The translations under genes and the position numbers were made by a program. The notes under the pieces were generated by a model. The model did not search any database and had not been told where the DNA came from. It was given only the letters and a program-made list of their open reading frames with translations. Shown piece by piece: positions 1-57,201 of a stretch of 64,000 nt of DNA. How positions within the stretch are numbered: position 1 is the first letter of the stretch; every line of letters starts with the position of its first letter. Where the stretch lies: the sequence record KP869105, one strand, 5' to 3'. Source of the DNA: Escherichia coli O157 typing phage 7.

Positions 1-3000
1 ACTAATGACTCATCCAAAATCACAGATAGTTTTAATTTTTAGTAATCGTCTGTGGCAAATGTATGTTGCTGATTATAGCAGAGAAGCGGCAGTTGTAACA
101 CCGGCAAGTCTTTATCAAGCGCAATCAAACGATTTTATCGTGTGTAGATTTACTTCTGCTTCAGCAATTAATATTAAACTTCCTAGATTTGCTAATCATG
201 GGGATATTATTAATTTTGTTGATTTAGATAAATTAAATCCGTTATATCATACTATCGTTACTACATACGATGAAACTACTTCTGTNNNNNNNNNNCGTAG
301 ATTTACTTCTGCTTCAGCAATTAATATTAAACTTCCTAGATTTGCTAATCATGGGGATATTATTAATTTTGTTGATTTAGATAAATTAAATCCGTTATAT
401 CATACTATCGTTACTACATACGATGAAACTACTTCTGTACAAGAAGTTGGAACTCATTCCATTGAAGGTCGTACATCTATTGATGGTTTCTTGATGTTTG
501 ATGATAATGAGAAATTGTGGAGATTGTTTGACGGGGATAGTAAAGCACGTTTACGCATTATAACGACTAATTCTAATATTCGTCCAAATGAAGAAGTCAT
601 GGTATTTGGCGCGAATAATGGAACAACCCAAACAATTGAACTTCAGCTTCCAACTGATATTTCTATCGGTGATACTGTTAAGATTTCCATGAATTATATG
701 AGAAAAGGACAAACAGTTAAAATCAAAGCTGCCGGTGAAGATAAAATTGCTTCTTCAGTTCAATTGCTGCAATTTCCAAAACGTTCAGAATACCCACCTG
801 AAACTAAATGGGTGACTGTTCAAGAATTAGTTTTTAATGGCGAAACCAATTATGTTCCAGTTTTACAGCTTGCTTATATCGAAGATTCTGACGGAAAATA
901 TTGGGTTGTACAGCAAAACGTTCCAACTGTAGAAAGAGTAGACTCTTTAAATAATTCTACTAGAGCAAGATTAGGGGTAATTGCTTTAGCTACACAAGCT
1001 CAAGCTAATGCTGATTTAGAAAATTCTCCACAAAAAGAATTGGCAATTACTCCAGAAACGTTAGCTAATCGTACTGCTACAGAAACTCGTAGAGGTATTG
1101 CAAGAATAGCAACTACTGCTCAAGTTAACCAGGATACTACATTCTCTTTTGCTGATGATATTATCATCACTCCTAAAAAGCTGAATGAAAGAACAGCTAC
1201 TGAAACTCGTAGGGGTGTCGCTGAAATTGCTACGCAACAGGAAACTAATACAGGTACTGATGATACGACAATCATCACTCCTAAAAAGCTTCAAGCTCGC
1301 CAAGGTTCTGAATCATTATCTGGTATTGTAACTTTTGTATCTACTGCAGGTGCTACTCCAGCTTCTAGCCGTGAATTAAATGGTACGAATGTTTATAATA
1401 AAAACACTAATAATTTAGTTGTTTCACCTAAAGCTTTGGATCAGTATAAAGCTACTCCAACACAGCAAGGTGCAGTAATTTTAGCAGTTGAAAGTGAAGT
1501 AATTGCTGGTCAAAGTCAAGAAGGATGGGCAAATGCTGTTGTAACTCCAGAAACGTTACACAAAAAGACATCAACTGATGGAAGAATTGGATTAATTGAA
1601 ATTGCTACGCAAAGTGAAGTTAATACAGGAACTGATTATACTCGTGCAGTCACTCCTAAAACTTTAAATGACCGTAGAGCAACTGAAAGTTTAAGTGGTA
1701 TAGCTGAAATTGCTACACAAGTTGAATTCGACGCGGGCGTCGACGATACTCGTATCTCTACACCATTAAAAATTAAAACCAGATTTAATAGTACTGATCG
1801 TACTTCTGTTGTTGCTCTATCTGGATTAGTTGAATCAGGAACTCTCTGGGACCATTATACCCTTAATATTCTTGAAGCAAACGAGACACAACGTGGTACA
1901 CTTCGTGTAGCTACACAAGTCGAAGCTGCTGCAGGAACATTAGATAATGTTTTAATAACTCCTAAAAAGCTTTTAGGTACTAAATCTACTGAAGCGCAAG
2001 AAGGTGTTATTAAAGTTGCAACACAAACCGAAACTGTTGCTGGTACATCATCTAATACTGCTGTATCTCCAAAGAATTTAAAATGGATCGTGCAGAGTGA
2101 ACCTACTTGGGCAGCTACTACTACAGTAAGAGGCTTTGTTAAAACTTCATCTGGTTCAATTACATTCGTTGGTAATGATACAGCCGGTTCTACTCAGGAC
2201 TTAGAGCTATACGAGAAAAATAGCTATGCAGTATCACCATACGAATTAAACCGTGTATTAGCAAATTATTTGCCATTAAAAGCAAAAGCTGCAGATAGTA
2301 ATTTATTGGATGGTCTAGATTCATCTCAGTTCATTCGTAGGGATATTGCACAGACGGTTAATGGTTCACTAACCTTAACCCAACAAACGAATCTGAGTGC
2401 CCCTCTTGTATCATCTAGTACTGCTACGTTTGGTGGATCAGTTTCGGCAAATAGTACATTAACTATTTCTAATACTGGAACGGCAACTCGTCTGATTTTT
2501 GAGAAAGGACCTCAAACTGGAACAAACCCAGCCCAAACGATGACTGTTAGAGTGTGGGGAAATCAATTTAGTGGGGAATTAGATACAACACGTTCTACCG
2601 TATTTGAAGTTAGTGATGAAACATCTAGTCATTTTTATTCTCAGCGCAATAAAGCTGGAAATATAACATTTAATATCAACGGTACAGTAACACCTATAAA
2701 TGTTAATGCTTCAGGAACATTGAATGCAAATGGTGTAGCAACATTTGGTAATTCAGTCACTGCAACTGGTGAAATTATTTCTCGAAGCGCAAATGCTTTC
2801 CGTGCTATTAACGGAAATTACGGTTTCATTGTTCGCAATGATGGATCAGTAACGAATTTTATGCTTACTGCATCGGGTGATCAGACTGGTGGATTTAATG
2901 GATTACGCCCATTAGCTATTAATAATGCATCTGGCCAAGTAACGATTGGTGAAAGCTTAATCATTGCCAAAGGTGCTACTATAAATTCAGGTGGTTTGAC

Positions 3001-3514
3001 TGTTAACTCGAGAATTCGTTCTCAAGGTACTAAAACATCTGACTTATATACACGTGCGCCAACATCTGATACTGTAGGATTCTGGTCAATTGATATTAAC
3101 GATTCAGCTACTTATAACCAGTTCCCAGGTTATTTTAAAATGGTTGAAAAAACTAATGAAGTGACTGGTCTTCCATATTTAGAACGTGGCGAAGAAGTTA
3201 AATCTCCTGGTACACTGACTCAGTTTGGTAACACACTTGATTCGCTTTACCAAGATTGGATTACTTATCCAACGACACCAGAAGCGCGTACCACTCGCTG
3301 GACACGTACATGGCAGAAAACCAAAAACTCTTGGTCAAGTTTTGTTCAGGTATTTGATGGAGGTAACCCTCCTCAGCCATCTGATATTGGTGCTTTACCA
3401 TCTGATAATGCTATAATGGGGAATCTTACTATTCGTGATTTCTTACGAATTGGTAATGTTCGCATTATTCCTGACCCAGTGAATAAAACTGTTAAATTTG
3501 AATGGGTTGAATAA
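1..3514 (+). CDS. 34: Long tail fibre proximal subunit gp34 (5' partial; gene continues upstream of window; contains N-gap and duplicated block at 144-438)
   Basis: ORF track 5..3514 and frame is open to position 1; translation matches remembered T4 gp34 C-terminal two-thirds including repeated TPKKL/ATE(T/S)RRG/IAT motifs; followed by genes 35-36-37 as in T4. Confidence 0.9.
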   Translation, partial: LMTHPKSQIVLIFSNRLWQMYVADYSREAAVVTPASLYQAQSNDFIVCRFTSASAINIKLPRFANHGDIINFVDLDKLNPLYHTIVTTYDETTSXXXXRRFTSASAINIKLPRFANHGDIINFVDLDKLNPLYHTIVTTYDETTSVQEVGTHSIEGRTSIDGFLMFDDNEKLWRLFDGDSKARLRIITTNSNIRPNEEVMVFGANNGTTQTIELQLPTDISIGDTVKISMNYMRKGQTVKIKAAGEDKIASSVQLLQFPKRSEYPPETKWVTVQELVFNGETNYVPVLQLAYIEDSDGKYWVVQQNVPTVERVDSLNNSTRARLGVIALATQAQANADLENSPQKELAITPETLANRTATETRRGIARIATTAQVNQDTTFSFADDIIITPKKLNERTATETRRGVAEIATQQETNTGTDDTTIITPKKLQARQGSESLSGIVTFVSTAGATPASSRELNGTNVYNKNTNNLVVSPKALDQYKATPTQQGAVILAVESEVIAGQSQEGWANAVVTPETLHKKTSTDGRIGLIEIATQSEVNTGTDYTRAVTPKTLNDRRATESLSGIAEIATQVEFDAGVDDTRISTPLKIKTRFNSTDRTSVVALSGLVESGTLWDHYTLNILEANETQRGTLRVATQVEAAAGTLDNVLITPKKLLGTKSTEAQEGVIKVATQTETVAGTSSNTAVSPKNLKWIVQSEPTWAATTTVRGFVKTSSGSITFVGNDTAGSTQDLELYEKNSYAVSPYELNRVLANYLPLKAKAADSNLLDGLDSSQFIRRDIAQTVNGSLTLTQQTNLSAPLVSSSTATFGGSVSANSTLTISNTGTATRLIFEKGPQTGTNPAQTMTVRVWGNQFSGELDTTRSTVFEVSDETSSHFYSQRNKAGNITFNINGTVTPINVNASGTLNANGVATFGNSVTATGEIISRSANAFRAINGNYGFIVRNDGSVTNFMLTASGDQTGGFNGLRPLAINNASGQVTIGESLIIAKGATINSGGLTVNSRIRSQGTKTSDLYTRAPTSDTVGFWSIDINDSATYNQFPGYFKMVEKTNEVTGLPYLERGEEVKSPGTLTQFGNTLDSLYQDWITYPTTPEARTTRWTRTWQKTKNSWSSFVQVFDGGNPPQPSDIGALPSDNAIMGNLTIRDFLRIGNVRIIPDPVNKTVKFEWVE
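144..438 (+). repeat. 142-bp perfect direct duplication flanking the N-gap (copy 144-285 and copy 297-438)
   Basis: Identical nucleotide strings on both sides of the N run; encoded peptide RFTSASAINIKLPRFANHGDIINFVDLDKLNPLYHTIVTTYDETTS appears twice. Confidence 0.9.
286..295. other. Run of 10 N (scaffold/assembly gap) inside gene 34
   Basis: Literal nnnnnnnnnn in sequence; gives XXXX in ORF translation. Confidence 1.
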
Positions 3515-3522
3515 GAGGTATT

Positions 3523-4638
3523 ATGGAAAAATTTATGGCAAAGTTTGGACAAGGATATGTCCAAACGCCATTTTTATCGGAAAGTAATTCAGTAAGATAT
3601 AAAATAAGTATAGCGGGTTCTTGCCCGCTTTCTACAGCAGGACCATATGTCAAATTTCAGGATAATCCTATCGGAAGTCAAACATTTAACGCAGGTCTTC
3701 ATTTAAGAGTTTTTGACCCTTCTACAGGAGCATTGGTTGATAGTAAGTCATATGTTTTTTCTACTTCAAATGATACAACATCTGCTGCTTTTGTTAGTTT
3801 CATGAACTCTTTGACGAATAATAGACTTGTTGCTATATTAACTAGCGGAAAGGTTAATTTTCCTCCTGAGGTAGTATCTTGGCTAAGAGTTGCGGGAACG
3901 TCTGCTTTTCCATCTGATTCTATATTGTCAAGATTTGACGTATCATATGCTGCCTTTTATACTTCTTCTAAAAGAGCTATTGCATTAGAACATGTTAAAC
4001 TGAGTAATAGAAAAAGCACAGATGATTATCAAACTATTTTAGATGTTGTATTTGACAGTTTAGAAGACGTTGGAGCTACCGGGTTTCCAAGAAGAACATA
4101 TGAAAGCGTTGAGCAGTTTATGTCAGCGGTTGGTGGAACTAATAACGAAATTGCACGTCTACCAACTTCATCCGCGATAAGTAAACTTTCTGACTACAAT
4201 TTAATTCCTGGCGATGTTCTTTATCTTAAAGCACAACTATATGCTGATGCCGATTTACTTGCTCTTGGAACTACAAATATATCCATCCGTTTTTATGATG
4301 AATCGGATGGATATATTTCTTCAACACATGCTGAGTTTACTGGACAAGCTGAGTCATGGGAATTAAAGGAAGACTATGTAGTTGTTCCTGAAAATGCAGT
4401 AGGATTTACGATATATGCACAAAGAACTGCACAAGCAGGTCAAGGTGGCATGAGGAATTTAAGTTTTTCTGAAGTATCAAGAAATGGCGGAATTTCAAAA
4501 CCTGCAGAATTTGGCGTCAATGGTATTCGAGTTAATTATGTCTGTGAATCTGCTTCACCTCCAGATATAATGGTATTTCCTACACAAGCATCGTCTAAAA
4601 CTGGTAAAGTGTTTGGACAAGAATTTAGAGAAGTTTAA
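3523..4638 (+). CDS. 35: Long tail fibre hinge connector gp35
   Basis: 371-aa ORF (T4 gp35 about 372 aa), sequence matches remembered T4 gp35 (MEKFMA.FGQGYVQTPFLSESNSVRYKISIAGSCPL...), RBS AAGAGG upstream, position between 34 and 36. Confidence 0.9.
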   Translation: MEKFMAKFGQGYVQTPFLSESNSVRYKISIAGSCPLSTAGPYVKFQDNPIGSQTFNAGLHLRVFDPSTGALVDSKSYVFSTSNDTTSAAFVSFMNSLTNNRLVAILTSGKVNFPPEVVSWLRVAGTSAFPSDSILSRFDVSYAAFYTSSKRAIALEHVKLSNRKSTDDYQTILDVVFDSLEDVGATGFPRRTYESVEQFMSAVGGTNNEIARLPTSSAISKLSDYNLIPGDVLYLKAQLYADADLLALGTTNISIRFYDESDGYISSTHAEFTGQAESWELKEDYVVVPENAVGFTIYAQRTAQAGQGGMRNLSFSEVSRNGGISKPAEFGVNGIRVNYVCESASPPDIMVFPTQASSKTGKVFGQEFREV

Positions 4639-4643
4639 ATTGA

Positions 4644-4670
4644 GGGAGCCTTCGGGTTCCCTTTTTCTTT
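4644..4670 (+). terminator. Stem-loop GGGAGCC-UUCG-GGUUCCC followed by U-run after gene 35
   Basis: 7-bp stem with UUCG tetraloop then TTTTTCTTT on plus strand. Confidence 0.6.
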
Positions 4671-4677
4671 ATAAATA
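4670..4677 (+). promoter_or_regulatory. T4 late promoter consensus TATAAATA upstream of gene 36
   Basis: Exact TATAAATA about 24 nt upstream of gene 36 ATG; gp55-dependent late promoter motif. Confidence 0.6.
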
Positions 4678-4700
4678 CTATTAAAATAAAGGGGCATACA

Positions 4701-5357
4701 ATGGCTGATTTAAAAGTAGGTTCAACAACCGGAGGCTCTGTCATTTGGCATCAAGGAAATTTTCCATTGAATCCAGCCGGTGACGATGTACTCTATAAAT
4801 CATTTAAAATATATTCAGAATATAATAAACCACAAGCTGCTGATAACGATTTCGTTTCTAAAGCTAATGGCGGTACTTATTTAAATAAAGTAATTTTTAA
4901 TAAAGGAATGACTGTTCCTGGCGCAGGGTCAGGTGATAATGGTATTTTTGCTGGTCCTGGTGATAGTGCCACGTATGATACTACAAATATGGATATTGTT
5001 TCGTGGTATGGTATTGGTTTTAAATCATCACAAGGAACAGCAGGTAGAACTGTAGTAATTAACACACGAAATGGAGATATTAGCTCAAAGGGCGTAATTG
5101 AAGCATCACAAATCCGTGTAACTTCGTTATCACCAGTAAATAATTATGACCTTACGCGGAAAGATTATGTTGATGGAGCAATAAATATTGTTACAGCAAA
5201 CGCAAACTCTAGGGTATTACGCTCTGGAGACACTATGACAGGAAATTTAACTGCGCCAAACCTTTTTTCACAGAATCCTGCATCTCAACCCTCGCATGTT
5301 CCACGATTTGACCAAATTGTTATTAAGGATTCTGTTCAAGATTTCGGCTATTATTAA
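4701..5357 (+). CDS. 36: Long tail fibre distal connector gp36
   Basis: 218-aa ORF (T4 gp36 about 221 aa), RBS AAAGGGG, synteny 35-36-37. Confidence 0.9.
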   Translation: MADLKVGSTTGGSVIWHQGNFPLNPAGDDVLYKSFKIYSEYNKPQAADNDFVSKANGGTYLNKVIFNKGMTVPGAGSGDNGIFAGPGDSATYDTTNMDIVSWYGIGFKSSQGTAGRTVVINTRNGDISSKGVIEASQIRVTSLSPVNNYDLTRKDYVDGAINIVTANANSRVLRSGDTMTGNLTAPNLFSQNPASQPSHVPRFDQIVIKDSVQDFGYY

Positions 5358-5365
5358 GAGGACTT

Positions 5366-8300
5366 ATGGCTACTTTAAAACAAATACAATTTAAAAGAAG
5401 CAAAACTGCAGGAGCACGTCCTGCCGCTTCAGTATTAGCCGAAGGTGAATTGGCTATAAACTTAAAAGACCGTGTACTTTTTACTAAAGATGACCAAGGA
5501 AATATTATTGATCTGGGTTTTGCTAAAGGCGGTAGTATTGACGGGAATGTTATTCATACAGGCAATTATAACCAAACTGGCGATTATACTTTAAATGGCA
5601 CATTCACTCAGACAGGTAATTTTAATTTAACTGGTATTGCTCGAGTAACTCGTGATATTATTGCCGCCGGGCAGATTATGACTGAAGGCGGAGAACTTAT
5701 TACAAAAAGTTCAGGTACAGCGCATGTTCGTTTTTTCGATGGCAATAGTCGCGAACGTGGAATCATTTATGCCCCGGCTAATGATGGTTTAACTACACAA
5801 GTACTTAATATCAGGGTTCAAGACTACGCCGCTGGTAGCGAAAGCACTTATGCATTTTCAGGCAGTGGCCTATTTACTTCACCTGAAGTATCAGCATGGA
5901 AATCTATTTCGTCTCCACAAATTCTGACCGATAAAGTTATTACAAATGGGAAGAAGACAGGCGATTATGACATCTATTCATTAGCAAATAACACCCCATT
6001 ATCTGAAAGCACTACTGCTATTAATCATCTTCGTGTCATGCGTAATGCCGTTGGTTCTGGTATTTTCCATGAAGTTAAAGATAATGATGGGATAACCTGG
6101 TATGCCGGTGACGGGTTGGAGGCTTATCTTTGGTCGTTTACGTGGTCCGGTGGGTTGAAAGCGGGTCATTCTATTTCTATAGGTACCCCAGGCGGTCCAA
6201 AAGGATATTCTGAATTAGGAACTGCTTCGATTGCTCTTGGTGATAATGACACCGGGTTAAAATGGCACCATGATGGATATTATTTCAGCGTCAATAATGG
6301 AACGAAAACATTTTTATTTAGTCCTAGCGAAACAACTAGCCTAAGAAAATTTGTAGCTGGATATTCTACTAACGGAACCGATTTAACTACTCCTCCGACT
6401 GAAAACTATGCTCTTGCTACTGTCGTGACATATCACGATAATAACGCGTTTGGAGATGGTCAAACTCTTTTAGGATATTATCAAGGCGGTAACTATCATC
6501 ACTATTTCCGCGGTAAGGGTACCACAAACATTAATACTCATGGCGGTTTGTTAGTTACTCCAGGTAATATTGACGTTATTGGTGGTTCTGTTAATATCGA
6601 TGGTAGAAATAATTCTTCTACACTGATGTTTAGAGGTAACACAACTGGTAGTAGTTCAGTTGATAATATGACAATTTCCGTTTGGGGCAATACGTTTACT
6701 AATCCTAGTGAAGGTACCCGTAAAAATGTTATGGAAATTTCTGATGCAACTAGCTGGATGAGCTATATTCAACGAACAACTGCAGGTAAAGTTGAATCGG
6801 TTATAAATGGCACCCAGATTGTTAATGAAAACTTGACCGTAGTAAAAAATGCTACATTTGATGGTACAATCAGCGCAGCAGGTGAAATTTCATCTGGTGC
6901 AGTGAATGCGCTTCGCATTTGGAACGCAGATTATGGAGCCATTTTTAGACGTTCAGAAGGTAGTCTTCATATTATTCCAACTGCTTATGGTGAAGGCAAA
7001 AATGGTGATATCGGTCCACTTCGCCCGTTTAGTATGGCTTTAGATACTGGTAAAGTTACTATTCCAGATTTACAATCAAGTTACAATACGTTTGCTGCTA
7101 ACGGTTATATTAAATTTGTTGGTCATGGAGCGGGTGCAGGTGGTTATGATATTCAGTATTCACAAGCTGCTCCTATTTTCCAAGAAATCGATGATGCTGC
7201 TGTAAGCAAATATTATCCTATTGTTAAACAGAAGTTTTTAAATGGTAAAGCTGTCTGGTCTTTGGGTACTGAAATTAATTCAGGTACATTTGTTTTACAT
7301 CATTTGAAAGAAGATGGTTCACAAGGCCATACATCAAGATTTAATGCTGATGGTACAGTTAATTTCCCCGATAATGTTCAAGTCGGCGGCGGTGAAGCTA
7401 CTATTGCTAGAAACGGTAATATCTTCTCTGATATTTGGAAAACATTTACTTCTGCCGGAGATACTACAAATATTCACGATGCGATAGCTACTCGTGTTGC
7501 CAAAGAAGGCGATACGATGACTGGCAAATTAATCGTTAGAAGAGGCTCTGACGCTATTAACATTGCTGCCGATGAAAATGATTCTTGCTATTTACTTGGA
7601 ACATCGGGTGGAGCGAATTCATGGTACATCGGTAAAGGAGGAGCAGATGACACTGCTTCATTTTATAATTTCAAAACTACCGCAGGAATTACTCTTAATA
7701 GTGTTGGTGATATTGATTTTAACGTCAAAAATCAAGCTACTGCAGCTTCATTAAATTTTTATCGTTTATATTTAAATGGAAGACAATGGACAGCTACACA
7801 AGGTCACGGCTATAATAATCAATGGCAAACAGAAGCCCCATTCTTCGTTGACTTTGGTGAATCTGTTCCGAAAGATAGTTATATGCCTATAATTAAAGGA
7901 AGAAGCCAAATCATTAACGAAGGATATGCCACAAAGGCAGATTTTGGTATTATTCGATTGGGTGGAAATGCTACTTGGGGAAATGCAGTAATTCGTGTTG
8001 GTTCTGCGGAAAGCGGAGATAGCAGTCATCCTAATGCAATATTTGTGTTTCAGGCTAATGGTGATTTTAAAGCTCCGGCTGGCCTTCGTGCTGGTGTTAA
8101 CTTGGGCGTCGGCACAATTCCAGTATGGGGCGGAGCATCTATCGCCATCGGGGATGATGATACCGGTTTAGTTCATGGCGGCGATGGTCGAATTAATATG
8201 TATGCTAACTCGCAGCATATAGCATCATGGGGCACGATGTATCAATCTCATCCAGGCCTTTGGGATTCAAATGGAGCTTTTTGGACAGAAGTTGGCAAAG

Positions 8301-8710
8301 CAATTATTTCTCATGGCCATTTAGTTCAGGCGAATGACAGCTATTCAACGTATGTCCGCGATGTTTATGTCCGCTCTGATATTCGTGTTAAAAAGGACCT
8401 AGTTAAATTTGAAAATGCTTCTGAGAAGCTTTCAAAAATTAATGGTTACACTTATATGCAGAAGCGAGGCCTAGATGAAGAAGGTAATCAGAAATGGGAA
8501 CCAAACGCTGGGTTAATTGCTCAAGAAGTTCAAGCTATTTTACCTGAATTGGTTGAAGGCGATCAGGATAGTGAAGCTTTACTTCGTTTGAACTATAACG
8601 GTGTAATTGGTTTAAATACAGCTGCAATCAATGAGCATACTGCAGAAATTGCAGAACTTAAGTCAGAGATTGAAGAGCTTAAAAAATTAGTTAAATCATT
8701 GTTAAAATAA
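5366..8710 (+). CDS. 37: Long tail fibre distal subunit gp37, T2-type with C-terminal intramolecular chaperone (S74-like) domain
   Basis: 1114-aa ORF; N-terminus [13 protein letters not shown] as T4 gp37; C-terminus has [11 protein letters not shown]...NYNGVIGL...coiled-coil tail typical of auto-cleaved chaperone domains; lacks T4 His-box tip. Confidence 0.9.
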
Positions 8711-8714
8711 AATG

Positions 8715-8730
8715 AGGGGCTTCGGCCCCT
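8715..8730 (+). promoter_or_regulatory. Stem-loop AGGGGC-UUCG-GCCCCU between gene 37 stop and gene 38 RBS
   Basis: Perfect 6-bp stem with UUCG tetraloop immediately followed by GGAGG RBS; no U-run. Confidence 0.4.
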
Positions 8731-8741
8731 TGGAGGTTTAT

Positions 8742-9536
8742 ATGGCAGTTGAAGGACCGTGGGTAGGATGGTCTGCGAGGGTACAAACTGGAGACCCTTG
8801 GATGGGTGGTGCCGCGCTGAGATTGAGAATGGGAATTCCGTTTTGGATGAGTAATATGATAGGTCGATCTGTTGAAGTAATTCACACCCTTGGAGCGGAC
8901 CATAACTTCAATGGTCAATGGTTCCGAGATAGATGTTTTGAGGCAGGTAGTGCACCTATAGTGTTTAATATTACCGGAAATTTGGTATCATATTCTAGAG
9001 ACGTTCCTTTATTCTTCATGTACGGAGATACACCTAATGAATATGTTCAGTTGAATATTGGTGGCGGCGTCCATATGTGGGGTAGAGGTGGACAAGGTGG
9101 ATGGACTCATTCCGGCGGAGATGGTAATGGTCAACAAGGTGGTCATTGTATTCAAAATGACATCGGTGGACGATTAAGAATTAATAACGGTGGAGTAATT
9201 TGTGGTGGAGGTGGAGGTGGAGGTGGTATCGCTTATCGTCCTCACTCTGGTGCAAATTGGCAAGATATTGGTGGTGGTGGAGGAAGACCATTTGGCCCAG
9301 GAGGAGGCGGAGGTTATTCCGGCGGCGCAGCTTCTTATGATGGCCCAGGAGGTGGTTATAATTATGGTAATGCTCACTCTGGCCAGGGTGGTGATGCTGG
9401 CGCAAATGGACAAAATGCCTGGCATGATGGCGGTAAAGTTCTAAAAGTTGGAGCTGGTGGCGCTGCCGGATATGCTGTTATAGGATCAGCTCCAACATGG
9501 CAAAATGTTGGAGTAATATATGGTCCAAGGGTATAA
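8742..9536 (+). CDS. 38: Tail fibre adhesin gp38 (T2-type, glycine-rich motifs)
   Basis: ORF track start 8712 trimmed to ATG 8742 preceded by GGAGG; protein [10 protein letters not shown]... with poly-Gly blocks ([20 protein letters not shown]) separated by variable segments; 264 aa versus T4 gp38 about 183 aa. Confidence 0.8.
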
Positions 9537-9538
9537 TT

Positions 9539-9546
9539 TTGAATAA
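9539..9546 (+). promoter_or_regulatory. Late-promoter-like AATAAATA upstream of holin t
   Basis: 7/8 match to TATAAATA about 22 nt upstream of t ATG. Confidence 0.35.
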
Positions 9547-9567
9547 ATATCCTTAAAAGGAGGGTCT

Positions 9568-10224
9568 ATGGCAGCACCTAGAATATCATTTTCGCCCTCT
9601 GATATTCTATTTGGTGTTCTAGATCGCTTGTTCAAAGATAACGCTACCGGGAAAGTTCTTGCTTCCCGGGTAGCTGTCGTAATTCTTTTATTTATGATGG
9701 CGATTGTTTGGTATAGGGGAGATAGTTTCTTTGAGTACTATAAGCAATCAAAGTATGAAACATACAGTGAAATTATTGAAAAGGAAAGAAACGCACGCTT
9801 TGAATCTGTCGCCCTGGAACAACTCCAGATAGTTCACATATCATCTGAGGCAGACTTTAGTGCGGTGTATTCTTTCCGCCCTAAAAACTTAAACTATTTT
9901 GTTGATATTATAGCATATGAAGGAAAATTACCTTCAACAATAAGTGAAAAATCACTTGGAGGATATCCTGTTGATAAAACTATGGATGAATATACAGTTC
10001 ATTTAAATGGACGTCATTATTATTCCAACTCAAAATTTGCTTTTTTACCAACTAAAAAGCCTACTCCCGAAATAAACTACATGTACAGTTGTCCATATTT
10101 TAATTTGGATAACATCTATGCTGGAACAATAACCATGTACTGGTATAGAAATGATCATATAAGTAATGACCGCCTTGAATCAATATGTTCTCAGGCGGCC
10201 AGAATATTAGGAAGGGCTAAATAA
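9568..10224 (+). CDS. t: Holin t
   Basis: 218-aa ORF identical in length to T4 holin and matching remembered sequence (MAAPRISFSPSDILFGVLDRLFKDNATGKVLASR...); strong RBS AAAGGAGGG. Confidence 0.95.
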   Translation: MAAPRISFSPSDILFGVLDRLFKDNATGKVLASRVAVVILLFMMAIVWYRGDSFFEYYKQSKYETYSEIIEKERNARFESVALEQLQIVHISSEADFSAVYSFRPKNLNYFVDIIAYEGKLPSTISEKSLGGYPVDKTMDEYTVHLNGRHYYSNSKFAFLPTKKPTPEINYMYSCPYFNLDNIYAGTITMYWYRNDHISNDRLESICSQAARILGRAK

Positions 10225-10497
10225 TTATTTGTTTGTATACATCTCTAGATATCGATATACACCCTCAAAACCCTCGTTGAATTCGTCGATGAGGGTTTTC
10301 TTATCTTCTTGGGTTAATTCAGAAACAATTTTACGGAATGAATTCTGATTTAATTTTCTACCTTCATGCGTTACTCCAATCTCATTCAGAAATGCAATAA
10401 AATTAGCACGATTCTCAACAATATCTTCTCTGGAAAATTTAATCAAAATAGACGCAACAGTAATAATTTCACGAACTGTATCAATATTTTTATTCAT
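10225..10497 (-). CDS. asiA: Anti-sigma-70 protein AsiA
   Basis: 90-aa ORF matching remembered T4 AsiA (MNKNIDTVREIITVASILIKFSREDIVENRANFIAFLNEIGVTHEGRKL...). Confidence 0.95.
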   Translation of the reverse strand: MNKNIDTVREIITVASILIKFSREDIVENRANFIAFLNEIGVTHEGRKLNQNSFRKIVSELTQEDKKTLIDEFNEGFEGVYRYLEMYTNK

Positions 10498-10509
10498 TAA
10501 CTATACCAC

Positions 10510-10662
10510 TCAATTAGTTGACTTTGTTATAATATCATCAGACGCTTGATTTGTAAACTGGTCTGTGTTATTTTCTTCAAAAATTTTTTCTACGAATTCC
10601 TTGAACGACTCACGTTCCTGAGCTACATTATGCTCGATTACCATTTCAAGATTATGACTCAT
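10510..10662 (-). CDS. Small ORF (50 aa) between arn and asiA (asiA.1-like)
   Basis: Manually translated MSHNLEMVIEHNVAQERESFKEF...; ATG overlaps arn stop as ATGA; below ORF-track size cutoff. Confidence 0.4.
   Translation of the reverse strand: MSHNLEMVIEHNVAQERESFKEFVEKIFEENNTDQFTNQASDDIITKSTN
10529..10558 (-). promoter_or_regulatory. T4-type early promoter (GTTTAC -35, TATTAT -10) upstream of asiA
   Basis: Minus strand GTTTAC-N18-TATTAT; member of conserved early promoter family. Confidence 0.55.
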
Positions 10663-10937
10663 TCGAAATAATCTTCAATTTCGTAATCATGGACGTAAAT
10701 CATTATAGTTTTTAATACATCATCAATACTTTTTCCTGGAGCTGGAATTACATAAAAATATCCTGCTTTTGAGAGGTCTTTATAAGTTCCAACCAAGAAA
10801 TCGTTATTCTCAAGATGTAGTTCTTCAACTAATTCATTGACAATTGAGTGGTATAAATTTGGTAGAAACTTATATAGCTTTTCTAGAATATCAATTTTGA
10901 TTGTATATTGAACCACGGATTGAGAATCAATAATCAT
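10659..10937 (-). CDS. arn: Anti-restriction nuclease inhibitor Arn
   Basis: 92-aa acidic ORF, same length and position as T4 Arn (between asiA and motA). Confidence 0.85.
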   Translation of the reverse strand: MIIDSQSVVQYTIKIDILEKLYKFLPNLYHSIVNELVEELHLENNDFLVGTYKDLSKAGYFYVIPAPGKSIDDVLKTIMIYVHDYEIEDYFE

Positions 10938-11020
10938 AGACCTTCCCCTTATGTTTCTGTTTGCGATTAGATTCTTTAAACGCTTTCTTCTTATCCTTAT
11001 GAACAGAAGCTTTATTAAAA

Positions 11021-11239
11021 TTATGTTTTGCGACTAAATTGTTCATAGTGCTGAATTACCTCTCTTAAACATTTGCATGTGAATGAAAACTTTTTAGCTA
11101 CACCACATTCAAATATATGTTCTCTTAAATCACGTGTATCGGTATATCCCATCTCAACAATAAAATGCCGTATTAAATTTTTATCTTTATCATTGAGAGA
11201 ATTAAAATAGTCAGATTTTGAATTAATTTCCCTGGCCAA
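11021..11239 (-). CDS. Hypothetical protein (T4 arn-motA interval)
   Basis: 72-aa ORF in track; Cys-containing small protein. Confidence 0.55.
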   Translation of the reverse strand: MAREINSKSDYFNSLNDKDKNLIRHFIVEMGYTDTRDLREHIFECGVAKKFSFTCKCLREVIQHYEQFSRKT

Positions 11240-11519
11240 ATTGAATCACCTTCAGTTGACGTTTTAATTCTTTTATCATTTCTTCGTTCATCGCAATATA
11301 AAGATCGCGTAAAGCAGGTTTTAGCATTCCATTTATTGGAGAACTAAATGGACATACATAATCTTTTCCTACGAGCTTTTTGGTGAATTCCATATCACAG
11401 AACTTAAATCCCGGCTCATTGGTATAAATTCCCCAATTAGTTGACATCATTTTATTAGCATATTCCAGTGCCTGGATTTGATTCATAATTCCATCAATTT
11501 GAAACTTTTTAATATTCAT
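11223..11519 (-). CDS. Hypothetical protein (T4 arn-motA interval)
   Basis: 98-aa ORF in track. Confidence 0.55.
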   Translation of the reverse strand: MNIKKFQIDGIMNQIQALEYANKMMSTNWGIYTNEPGFKFCDMEFTKKLVGKDYVCPFSSPINGMLKPALRDLYIAMNEEMIKELKRQLKVIQFGQGN

Positions 11520-11980
11520 TAGTAAAGGTCCTCAGAGTAAAGTTCTTTTTCACTACCACCACGTTCAATACGTACTTGTCCAGCGTAAGTTGCAATAATC
11601 ATTGCTTCTTCACGTGTCCAATAATTACTATATTGGTCAATAAACCCTTGGTCATCATCACAAACTTGCTGAGTAACTAATTGAGGTTTAACTACATCTA
11701 AAACTTCTGCCATATCTTTAGAATAATGACGAGCACCTGGAATAACAAGAGTTCGTCCATCTTTTAATTTAAAACGATTAGCTGCACAGACAATTCGTCG
11801 TTGATACTTTTGGTTTTCATCCCAGTACGCAGTCTGCCAACAGATTTCAGGAACTTCTTTCAGAATATCTTCTTCTGTGCATTTATAACCATGCGCTTTA
11901 AATTTTTGAACAAGACTCTCCGGAGTCTCACGAGATAAAGGCACATTCAGCATTTTTAAACGATTAATAAATGGGTTCAT
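11519..11980 (-). CDS. Hypothetical protein (T4 arn-motA interval)
   Basis: 153-aa ORF in track. Confidence 0.6.
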
Positions 11981-12306
11981 TTAAACCATCCTTTAATACG
12001 TTGCCACAAAGTTTTCTGCTGAGCTTTGTTAACACCAATTGAACGAATAACCGGTTGAGATTCCTGGAATTCTTTATAATCGGCAAGGTAAATTTCGTAA
12101 GCTGCATCCGTAAATGAACTTATCGCTGCCATAAAATTATTGCGAATACCTACTGGAGCATCTTTACTTTCACGAATAATCATGTATTTACCAGTCTTAA
12201 TCTTTACAATAGTTCCAAGATAAGCTCCATGGTACCAAATATCCCAACCCTCTTGAGTAGGTTCTGCGCAACGACGAAGTTCATTGACAATTTCTAACTT
12301 GTTCAT
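11977..12306 (-). CDS. Hypothetical protein (T4 arn-motA interval)
   Basis: 109-aa ORF in track, start overlaps upstream stop. Confidence 0.6.
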
Positions 12307-12316
12307 TATTTATTCC

Positions 12317-12952
12317 TCACAGTTCAGATGCTACAGTGATTACAGCTTCAATGTTTTCTACCGAGCGTTTAATGTCAAGATACACATTGCCGTTTTTAGC
12401 GATTTTACAAGACATTCCGATGTCAGTAAATTTCTGAATATGATGTTCCATCATTTTATATCCAAAAATTCGCATATTTCCATTGTTGTTAATTTCAAAA
12501 TTACGAATTCCGTGAGTGCGTTTTTCTAAAATAGCAAGATAGTTACTGCGATAAGTTTCAACCTTTTTAAGAACAAATCCATTTTCATCCAAAAGTTTTA
12601 ACATGAGGTCTTTATCTTCTTCCATATCAGAAGTAATCTCGCGAGCTTTACGAGTTGCTCGTTTTTTCAGCAGTTCCGGAGCATTTTCCTGTGCGTATAA
12701 AGTTGCTGCGTTTGAAATAATATCCTGAGCTTCACCTGTAATGATTAATCCATCACCAGATTTCTCCACCAGGCCTTTTTTAATCAATACCCCAATATTA
12801 CTATTAACTACTGCGTTACCTAAATCTGGATGCACCTCACGAACTTCTGCAGCTGTAATGAAATCTTTCTTAGCAATGGTAATTAAAATCGCAGCAGTTT
12901 TTTCATTCAGAACATCGTTAGAAGCTTTGATGATGTAAGTTACTTTAGACAT
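12317..12952 (-). CDS. motA: Middle transcription activator MotA
   Basis: 211-aa ORF matching remembered T4 MotA (MSKVTYIIKASNDVLNEKTAAILITIAKKDFITAAEVREVHPDLGNAVVNSNIGVLIKKGLVEKSGDGL...). Confidence 0.95.
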   Translation of the reverse strand: MSKVTYIIKASNDVLNEKTAAILITIAKKDFITAAEVREVHPDLGNAVVNSNIGVLIKKGLVEKSGDGLIITGEAQDIISNAATLYAQENAPELLKKRATRKAREITSDMEEDKDLMLKLLDENGFVLKKVETYRSNYLAILEKRTHGIRNFEINNNGNMRIFGYKMMEHHIQKFTDIGMSCKIAKNGNVYLDIKRSVENIEAVITVASEL

Positions 12953-12993
12953 TTTCTAATCTCCGTAATTCTGTATCAGTAGTTGATAGTTGT

Positions 12994-13023
12994 ATAGTAC
13001 CATAGAATGCTTTGGTTGTAAAC
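12994..13023 (-). promoter_or_regulatory. T4-type early promoter upstream of motA
   Basis: Minus strand GTTTAC-N18-TACTAT followed by conserved leader ACAACTATCAACTAC; A/T-rich UP region upstream. Confidence 0.6.
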
Positions 13024-56873: not shown

Positions 56874-57201
56874 TTATACCTTAGTAATTTTCAGGTCTGC
56901 AAATTTTTTCTTGCGTTGATTTTTCATGCGACGAATAGTCTTATCGGAAATTTCATGCTTTTGATAAGCTTTAGATTCTACGCCAAAAGCTTTAACATCA
57001 AATTCTGACAAGATATATTGAACCAACAATTCACGGACAGTATTGCGTCCAATCTTCTGATCATTCTGTTTCATCATTTGATGAAGATCTTTTTCCCATT
57101 TATCCAAAATTTGAGGAGTTACAATATCGCCTTTTTTCTAGCAAAGAAACTACTTTATCATATGCGTAAGAATTAATGACGTTTTTAATTTGAATAGTCA
57201 T
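56874..57201 (-). pseudogene. Frameshifted gene (about 108 codons if corrected): ATG at 57201, frame break in homopolymer run 57132-57137
   Basis: ATG 57201 with GAGGA RBS reads 23 codons then hits a stop; deleting one T from the T6 run (A6 on coding strand) joins it in frame to ORF 56874..57107, whose annotated start is a TTG. Confidence 0.55.

Follow-up and report, generated by a model that had tools for sequence, protein, structure and literature searches.

We analysed a stretch of 64,000 nucleotides from Escherichia coli O157 typing phage 7 (sequence record KP869105), which we call the window. Near its beginning, a run of ten Ns is bracketed by two identical copies of a 142-base sequence that lie within gene 34. 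We conclude with near certainty that this duplication is an artefact of a scaffold join, at which two contig ends cover one and the same part of gene 34, a single-copy sequence. The duplication around the Ns is not a biological feature and is ordinary in kind. The real gene 34 contains the block once and encodes 1289 residues.

The matter is one of sequence quality only. Taken literally, the scaffold leads to a gene 34 that is annotated as 1340 amino acids with an XXXX segment and a false internal repeat, or to one that is broken up or marked as a pseudogene. A gene 34 read in this way would mislead comparative work on the length or the repeats of tail fibres.

The duplicated block in gene 34

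Judged by its similarity to database records, the window is part of a T4-type (Tequatrovirus) genome that is nearly identical to that of Escherichia phage wV7. A megablast search with window positions 1-1200 matched 502 phage records, the closest being wV7 (99.9%). The 3′ part of gene 34, which encodes the proximal subunit of the long tail fibre, occupies positions 1-3514 on the plus strand, from residue 171 to the stop codon, and this is the gene that holds the artefact. Its product is called gp34 in wV7's own annotation of the same stretch, and it matches the Pfam domains Gp34_trimer and Gp34_2nd (PF21446, PF21560). In addition, residues 218-1289 of a solved gp34 chain of 1289 amino acids (PDB 9x3r_M) are colinear with window positions 296-3511 without insertions or deletions (E=0).

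The two copies of the block, at positions 144-285 and 297-438, are identical over 142 nucleotides without a mismatch. A perfect direct repeat of this length in 64 kb cannot be the product of chance. Between the copies lie ten Ns (positions 286-295), which are the sole N run in the 64,000 bases, and a real C at position 296. The original prediction described the identical copies and the Ns correctly, although its description lacked this C.

From start to start, the copies are 153 nucleotides apart (142 + 10 + 1), or 51 codons. Translation in the frame of gene 34 reads ...FIVCRFTSAS...YDETTS-XXXX-RRFTSAS...YDETTSVQEV, in agreement with the earlier claim that the frame is kept and that a 47-residue block occurs twice around XXXX. 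The base that precedes copy 1 (position 143) is T, and the base that precedes copy 2 (position 296) is C. These two positions represent the same genomic site, and the true overlap consists of 143 aligned positions with a single mismatch at the first. At this site, the left contig encodes cysteine (TGT) and the right contig encodes arginine (CGT) at residue 218.

When 153 nucleotides are subtracted, the gene in the window is colinear, with no insertion or deletion, with residues 171-1289 of gp34 from T4-type phages (wV7, T4 and the chain in 9x3r_M), and its DNA is 99.9% identical to that of wV7 gene 34. As written, by contrast with the gp34 of 1289 amino acids, the gene has 1340 amino acids, contains XXXX, repeats the 47-residue block (residues 219-265) and has Cys at residue 218 of the first copy, where the known gp34 has Arg. 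The expectation that the real gp34 would be 51 codons shorter than the written one is borne out by an independent assembly, described below, which encodes 1289 amino acids.

Gene 34 also contains repeats of a different sort. Between positions 1047 and 2055 there are five diverged copies of a unit of about 71 nucleotides, with 63-76% identity to one another and a spacing in multiples of three. These genuine intragenic repeats encode motifs resembling ITPKKL...ATE..RG.AEIATQ. We take them to be the known repeated motifs of the fibre shaft, with no relation to the 142-nucleotide artefact.

By eye, the N-terminal third of gp34 seems to contain three occurrences of a motif of the form I.x.LPxxxxxGDxI, at residues ~120-155, 224-259 and 335-370. 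The last two correspond to window positions ~161-268 and 647-754, and one of the three lies within the duplicated block. A blastp comparison of the first 420 residues of gp34 with themselves yielded no off-diagonal alignment at E<=10. The block is therefore not a recognizable ancient repeat unit.

Relatives and an independent assembly

A blastn comparison of the whole window with wV7 gives three pieces. Window positions 1-285 align with wV7 148001-148285, positions 296-10193 align from wV7 148143 onward, and positions 10280-64000 align with the rest of the wV7 stretch. On the wV7 reference, the first and second pieces have 143 nucleotides in common, and copy 1 itself corresponds to wV7 148144-148285. 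Since both flanks map to the same wV7 bases, each side of the Ns is ordinary single-copy sequence. Relative to wV7 or to the independent assembly, nothing is missing at the N run.

The other relatives agree. In an alignment with wV7 and ESh31, the block is present once in each phage. In the megablast search, the 1200 query positions spanned 1047 nucleotides (1200 minus 153) in 40 of the 40 matches listed. The block searched on its own was found at 499 places in 499 records at E<=1e-30, always as a single copy. A search in a mode suited to distant matches gave 637 places in 635 records; of the two extra places, one was left at E<=1e-12, and at E<=1e-30 both were gone. We considered whether the two could be second copies and rejected this idea, as both match more weakly and belong to records other than those of the 499 close relatives.

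We also scanned viral, genome and metagenome contigs for the junction pattern ACGATGAAACTACTTCTGT N{0,30} GTAGATTTACTTCTGCTTCAGC, with 0 occurrences. However, a positive-control 31-mer from the normal right boundary likewise had 0 occurrences, so these collections do not contain a gene 34 like that of wV7 and the junction scans carry no weight.

An independent assembly crosses the region. When a collection of 153 billion gene positions was queried for exact matches to gp37 and to gp38 of the window, each protein led to one contig only, the Logan contig SRR1391166_718. This contig has 16,712 nucleotides and is free of Ns. It is 100.000% identical to window positions 296-12998 (12,703 nucleotides), and it differs from positions 1-285 by one mismatch, namely T at window 143 versus C at contig position 4010. 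Contig positions 4010-4152 are the target of both window 143-285 and window 296-438, with copy 1 falling on 4011-4152. The contig runs through the region without interruption (...ATCGTGCGTAGATTT...ACTTCTGTACAAGAAG...), with a single copy of the block and a gene 34 of 1289 residues. It ends at the equivalent of window position 12998, though the window goes on and is identical to wV7 at that point.

Going by sequence identity and shared private variants, from which we infer that run SRR1391166 represents the same sample, the Logan contig very probably derives from the same phage. A search for papers on run SRR1391166 found none that names it. The contig is the nearest stand-in for mapping reads over the join, and it shows the single copy. 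Removing window positions 143-295 restores the sequence of this assembly and keeps the C, whereas removing 144-296 keeps the T. Both deletions give a gp34 of 1289 amino acids and are equivalent as corrections. Colinearity with wV7, 499 single-copy relatives and a gap-free Logan contig uphold the proposal in the original prediction that the repeat is an unmerged contig overlap and no biological repeat.

These data bear directly on the idea that ~153 bp (51 codons) encoding part of the N-terminal region of gp34 are truly duplicated in tandem and in frame, and that the assembler, unable to resolve the copies, left Ns at their boundary. Tail-fibre genes tolerate such duplications, which are sometimes selected for, and tandem duplications in gene 37 were reportedly described in host-range mutants of T4 by Tetart and colleagues in 1996. 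A real duplication would fit the preserved frame, and the nonsynonymous differences from wV7 in gp37 and gp38 hint at selection on the fibre. Even so, we regard this explanation as very improbable. All 499 relatives have one copy of the block only, and the Logan contig, which has the same private gp37 and gp38 variants, passes through the region uninterrupted with one copy. A tandem duplication at full coverage would produce a cycle in a k-mer graph, and such a cycle would be expected to have broken the Logan contig at the borders of the repeat.

The window itself also speaks against a real duplication. Under a single-copy model, ...ACTTCTGT would lead into ACAAGAAGTTGG, whereas under a duplication model ...ACTTCTGT would be followed by a second CGTAGATTT... 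copy, with GTAGATTTACTTC within ~30 nucleotides. No base in the window represents a junction between the end of one unit and the start of another, and the one place where such a junction could lie is taken up by the Ns. The flanks are wild-type on both sides of the Ns, and a single copy explains every base. Moreover, the Ns directly follow the last base of copy 1, and the mismatch is precisely the first base of the right contig. An overlap of contig ends explains both facts and a duplication explains neither.

The Ns could, in principle, also be masked real bases, such as low-quality calls, in a contiguous sequence whose 153-nucleotide spacing is literal. The shortness of the run and a total length divisible by three are consistent with this. 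However, masking presupposes a real duplication, and both the relatives and the independent contig are at odds with one; we consider masking extremely improbable. Ten Ns are a common placeholder for an unknown or very small gap in assembler output and in sequence archives.

Other differences from wV7

Only three substitutions distinguish the window from wV7 in 64 kb, at positions 143, 8079 and 9257. All three are in long-tail-fibre genes, which make up ~15% of the window. The substitutions at 8079 and 9257 are nonsynonymous and correspond to gp37 V905A and gp38 K182N (gp38 being numbered from an ORF start at 8712). In the large look-up collection, these gp37 and gp38 variants occur only on the Logan contig. 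This pattern of changes in the tail fibre suggests that a wV7-like phage was under selection for host range.

The T-run at positions 57127-57132 has six Ts, one more than in wV7 and in 504 of 504 matching phage records. The extra T splits a homologue of gp55.2 (minus strand, ~56874-57201) into fragments of 33 and 77 amino acids. An exact look-up of the 33-amino-acid fragment (57100-57201) gave no match; short ORFs often go uncalled. Either a private frameshift or an error in sequencing the homopolymer would explain the extra T at 57132, which is another sign of draft quality.

One further difference concerns the wV7 record. A segment of 86 nucleotides at positions 10194-10279, which covers the 3′ ends of the convergent genes for holin t and asiA, is present in the window and in 485 of 488 relatives. 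The wV7 GenBank record is without this segment, and its holin t and asiA coding sequences are annotated as overlapping by 51 nucleotides. The absence is a deletion or a misassembly in the wV7 record. Given that the segment is missing there, the window was not copied from the wV7 record.

Overlapping contig ends

Two contigs of one T4-type phage genome almost certainly both reach into one stretch of gene 34 that exists as a single copy. Position 285 is the end of the left contig, so that copy 1 is its last 142 nucleotides. The right contig starts at position 296, the genomic site also represented by position 143, so that copy 2 is its bases 2-143. The contigs overlap by 143 positions, and the true distance between them is negative (-143). 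A joining step that merges only exact overlaps of contig ends, or that never checks for overlaps, would have abutted the contigs instead of collapsing them. A placeholder of minimum size, ten Ns, would have been put between the contigs as they lay side by side.

The mismatch at the first overlap position is probably behind both the break between the contigs and the failure to merge them. The sole mismatch between the window and the Logan contig in ~13 kb is at position 143, exactly where the overlap has its edge. The mismatch and the break are therefore connected and do not coincide by accident. The prefix of the right flank is absent from the left flank, and the 142-nucleotide suffix of the left flank is found one base into the right flank. 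The mismatch at the first position leaves the left contig without any suffix that is also a prefix of the right contig. The T/C difference is plausibly the reason why the join was left unmerged. In this respect, the window illustrates that an overlap can stay unmerged because of a single base that disagrees at the end of a contig.

We also considered a branch in a word graph with an odd word length of 143 as an assembler signature. It fits 142 identical bases plus a variant base. However, this model leaves unexplained why the left contig has T where the independent assembly has C, and so we do not claim any particular assembler.

The T at position 143 changes Arg218 of gp34 to Cys (CGT to TGT). 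A 59-mer that bears the T has an exact match in 0 of the 499 phage records, and at least 34 of these come closest with one position off. The T is also absent from the Logan contig. The base at this site is C in wV7, in ESh31, in the Logan contig and in at least the 34 closest relatives. Either a polymorphism within the phage stock or an error in sequencing could account for the T.

A polymorphism raises the question of a mixed population. Most phages would then have a single copy of the block with C and a minority would have T (Arg218Cys), perhaps along with a duplication, and both haplotypes would be combined in the scaffold. We view this as possible but doubtful. The T is private to the left contig, while C stands at this site in the right contig, as would be expected of a polymorphic site. 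A T/C polymorphism alone, however, is compatible with the artefact and forms part of its explanation, and the T could equally be an error in sequencing or consensus calling. The same assembly also has the private extra T at 57132. The linked duplication is without support. In its specific form, a subpopulation of the stock would carry an in-frame duplication of 51 codons at gp34 residues ~215-265, linked to Arg218Cys in one copy, and the assembler would have broken there; we judge this highly unlikely. If true, the duplication would slightly lengthen the proximal half-fibre in that subpopulation.

One observation does count against an unmerged overlap. The 153 nucleotides keep the frame, as they would have to if the essential gene were truly duplicated in part. 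If the duplication is an artefact, the kept frame is a one-in-three coincidence.

The duplications in T4 gene 37 that are reported to expand host range (Tetart et al. 1996) resemble the repeat in the window in that they are likewise short, in-frame repeats in a long-tail-fibre gene. However, they are said to have sequenced novel junctions and to lie in the distal adhesin region. Unlike them, the repeat in the window has no junction, brackets an assembly gap and is absent from an independent assembly.

False duplications in assemblies are a closer parallel to the unmerged overlap that we propose. In published work on these, a scaffolded gap between the members of a duplicated pair is one criterion for recognizing them, and heterozygosity and sequencing errors are among the causes given (PMC9516828). 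It has also been described that a scaffolder gives positive minimum gaps to contigs that directly overlap, and that polymorphism is behind many gaps (PMC3528712). In the ARBitR preprint, existing linked-read scaffolders are said to join contigs with a gap and to disregard overlaps. The repeat in the window shares with a published false duplication at a scaffold gap the identical copies that abut the Ns and the single-copy, colinear flanks, and nothing essential is different. As in the published cases, there is a disagreement at the edge of the overlap, and an independent assembly crosses the region without duplication. In contrast to those cases, the duplication here is tiny (143 nucleotides) and occurs in a haploid phage, where the disagreement is a variant in the population or an error, and not a second haplotype of a diploid.
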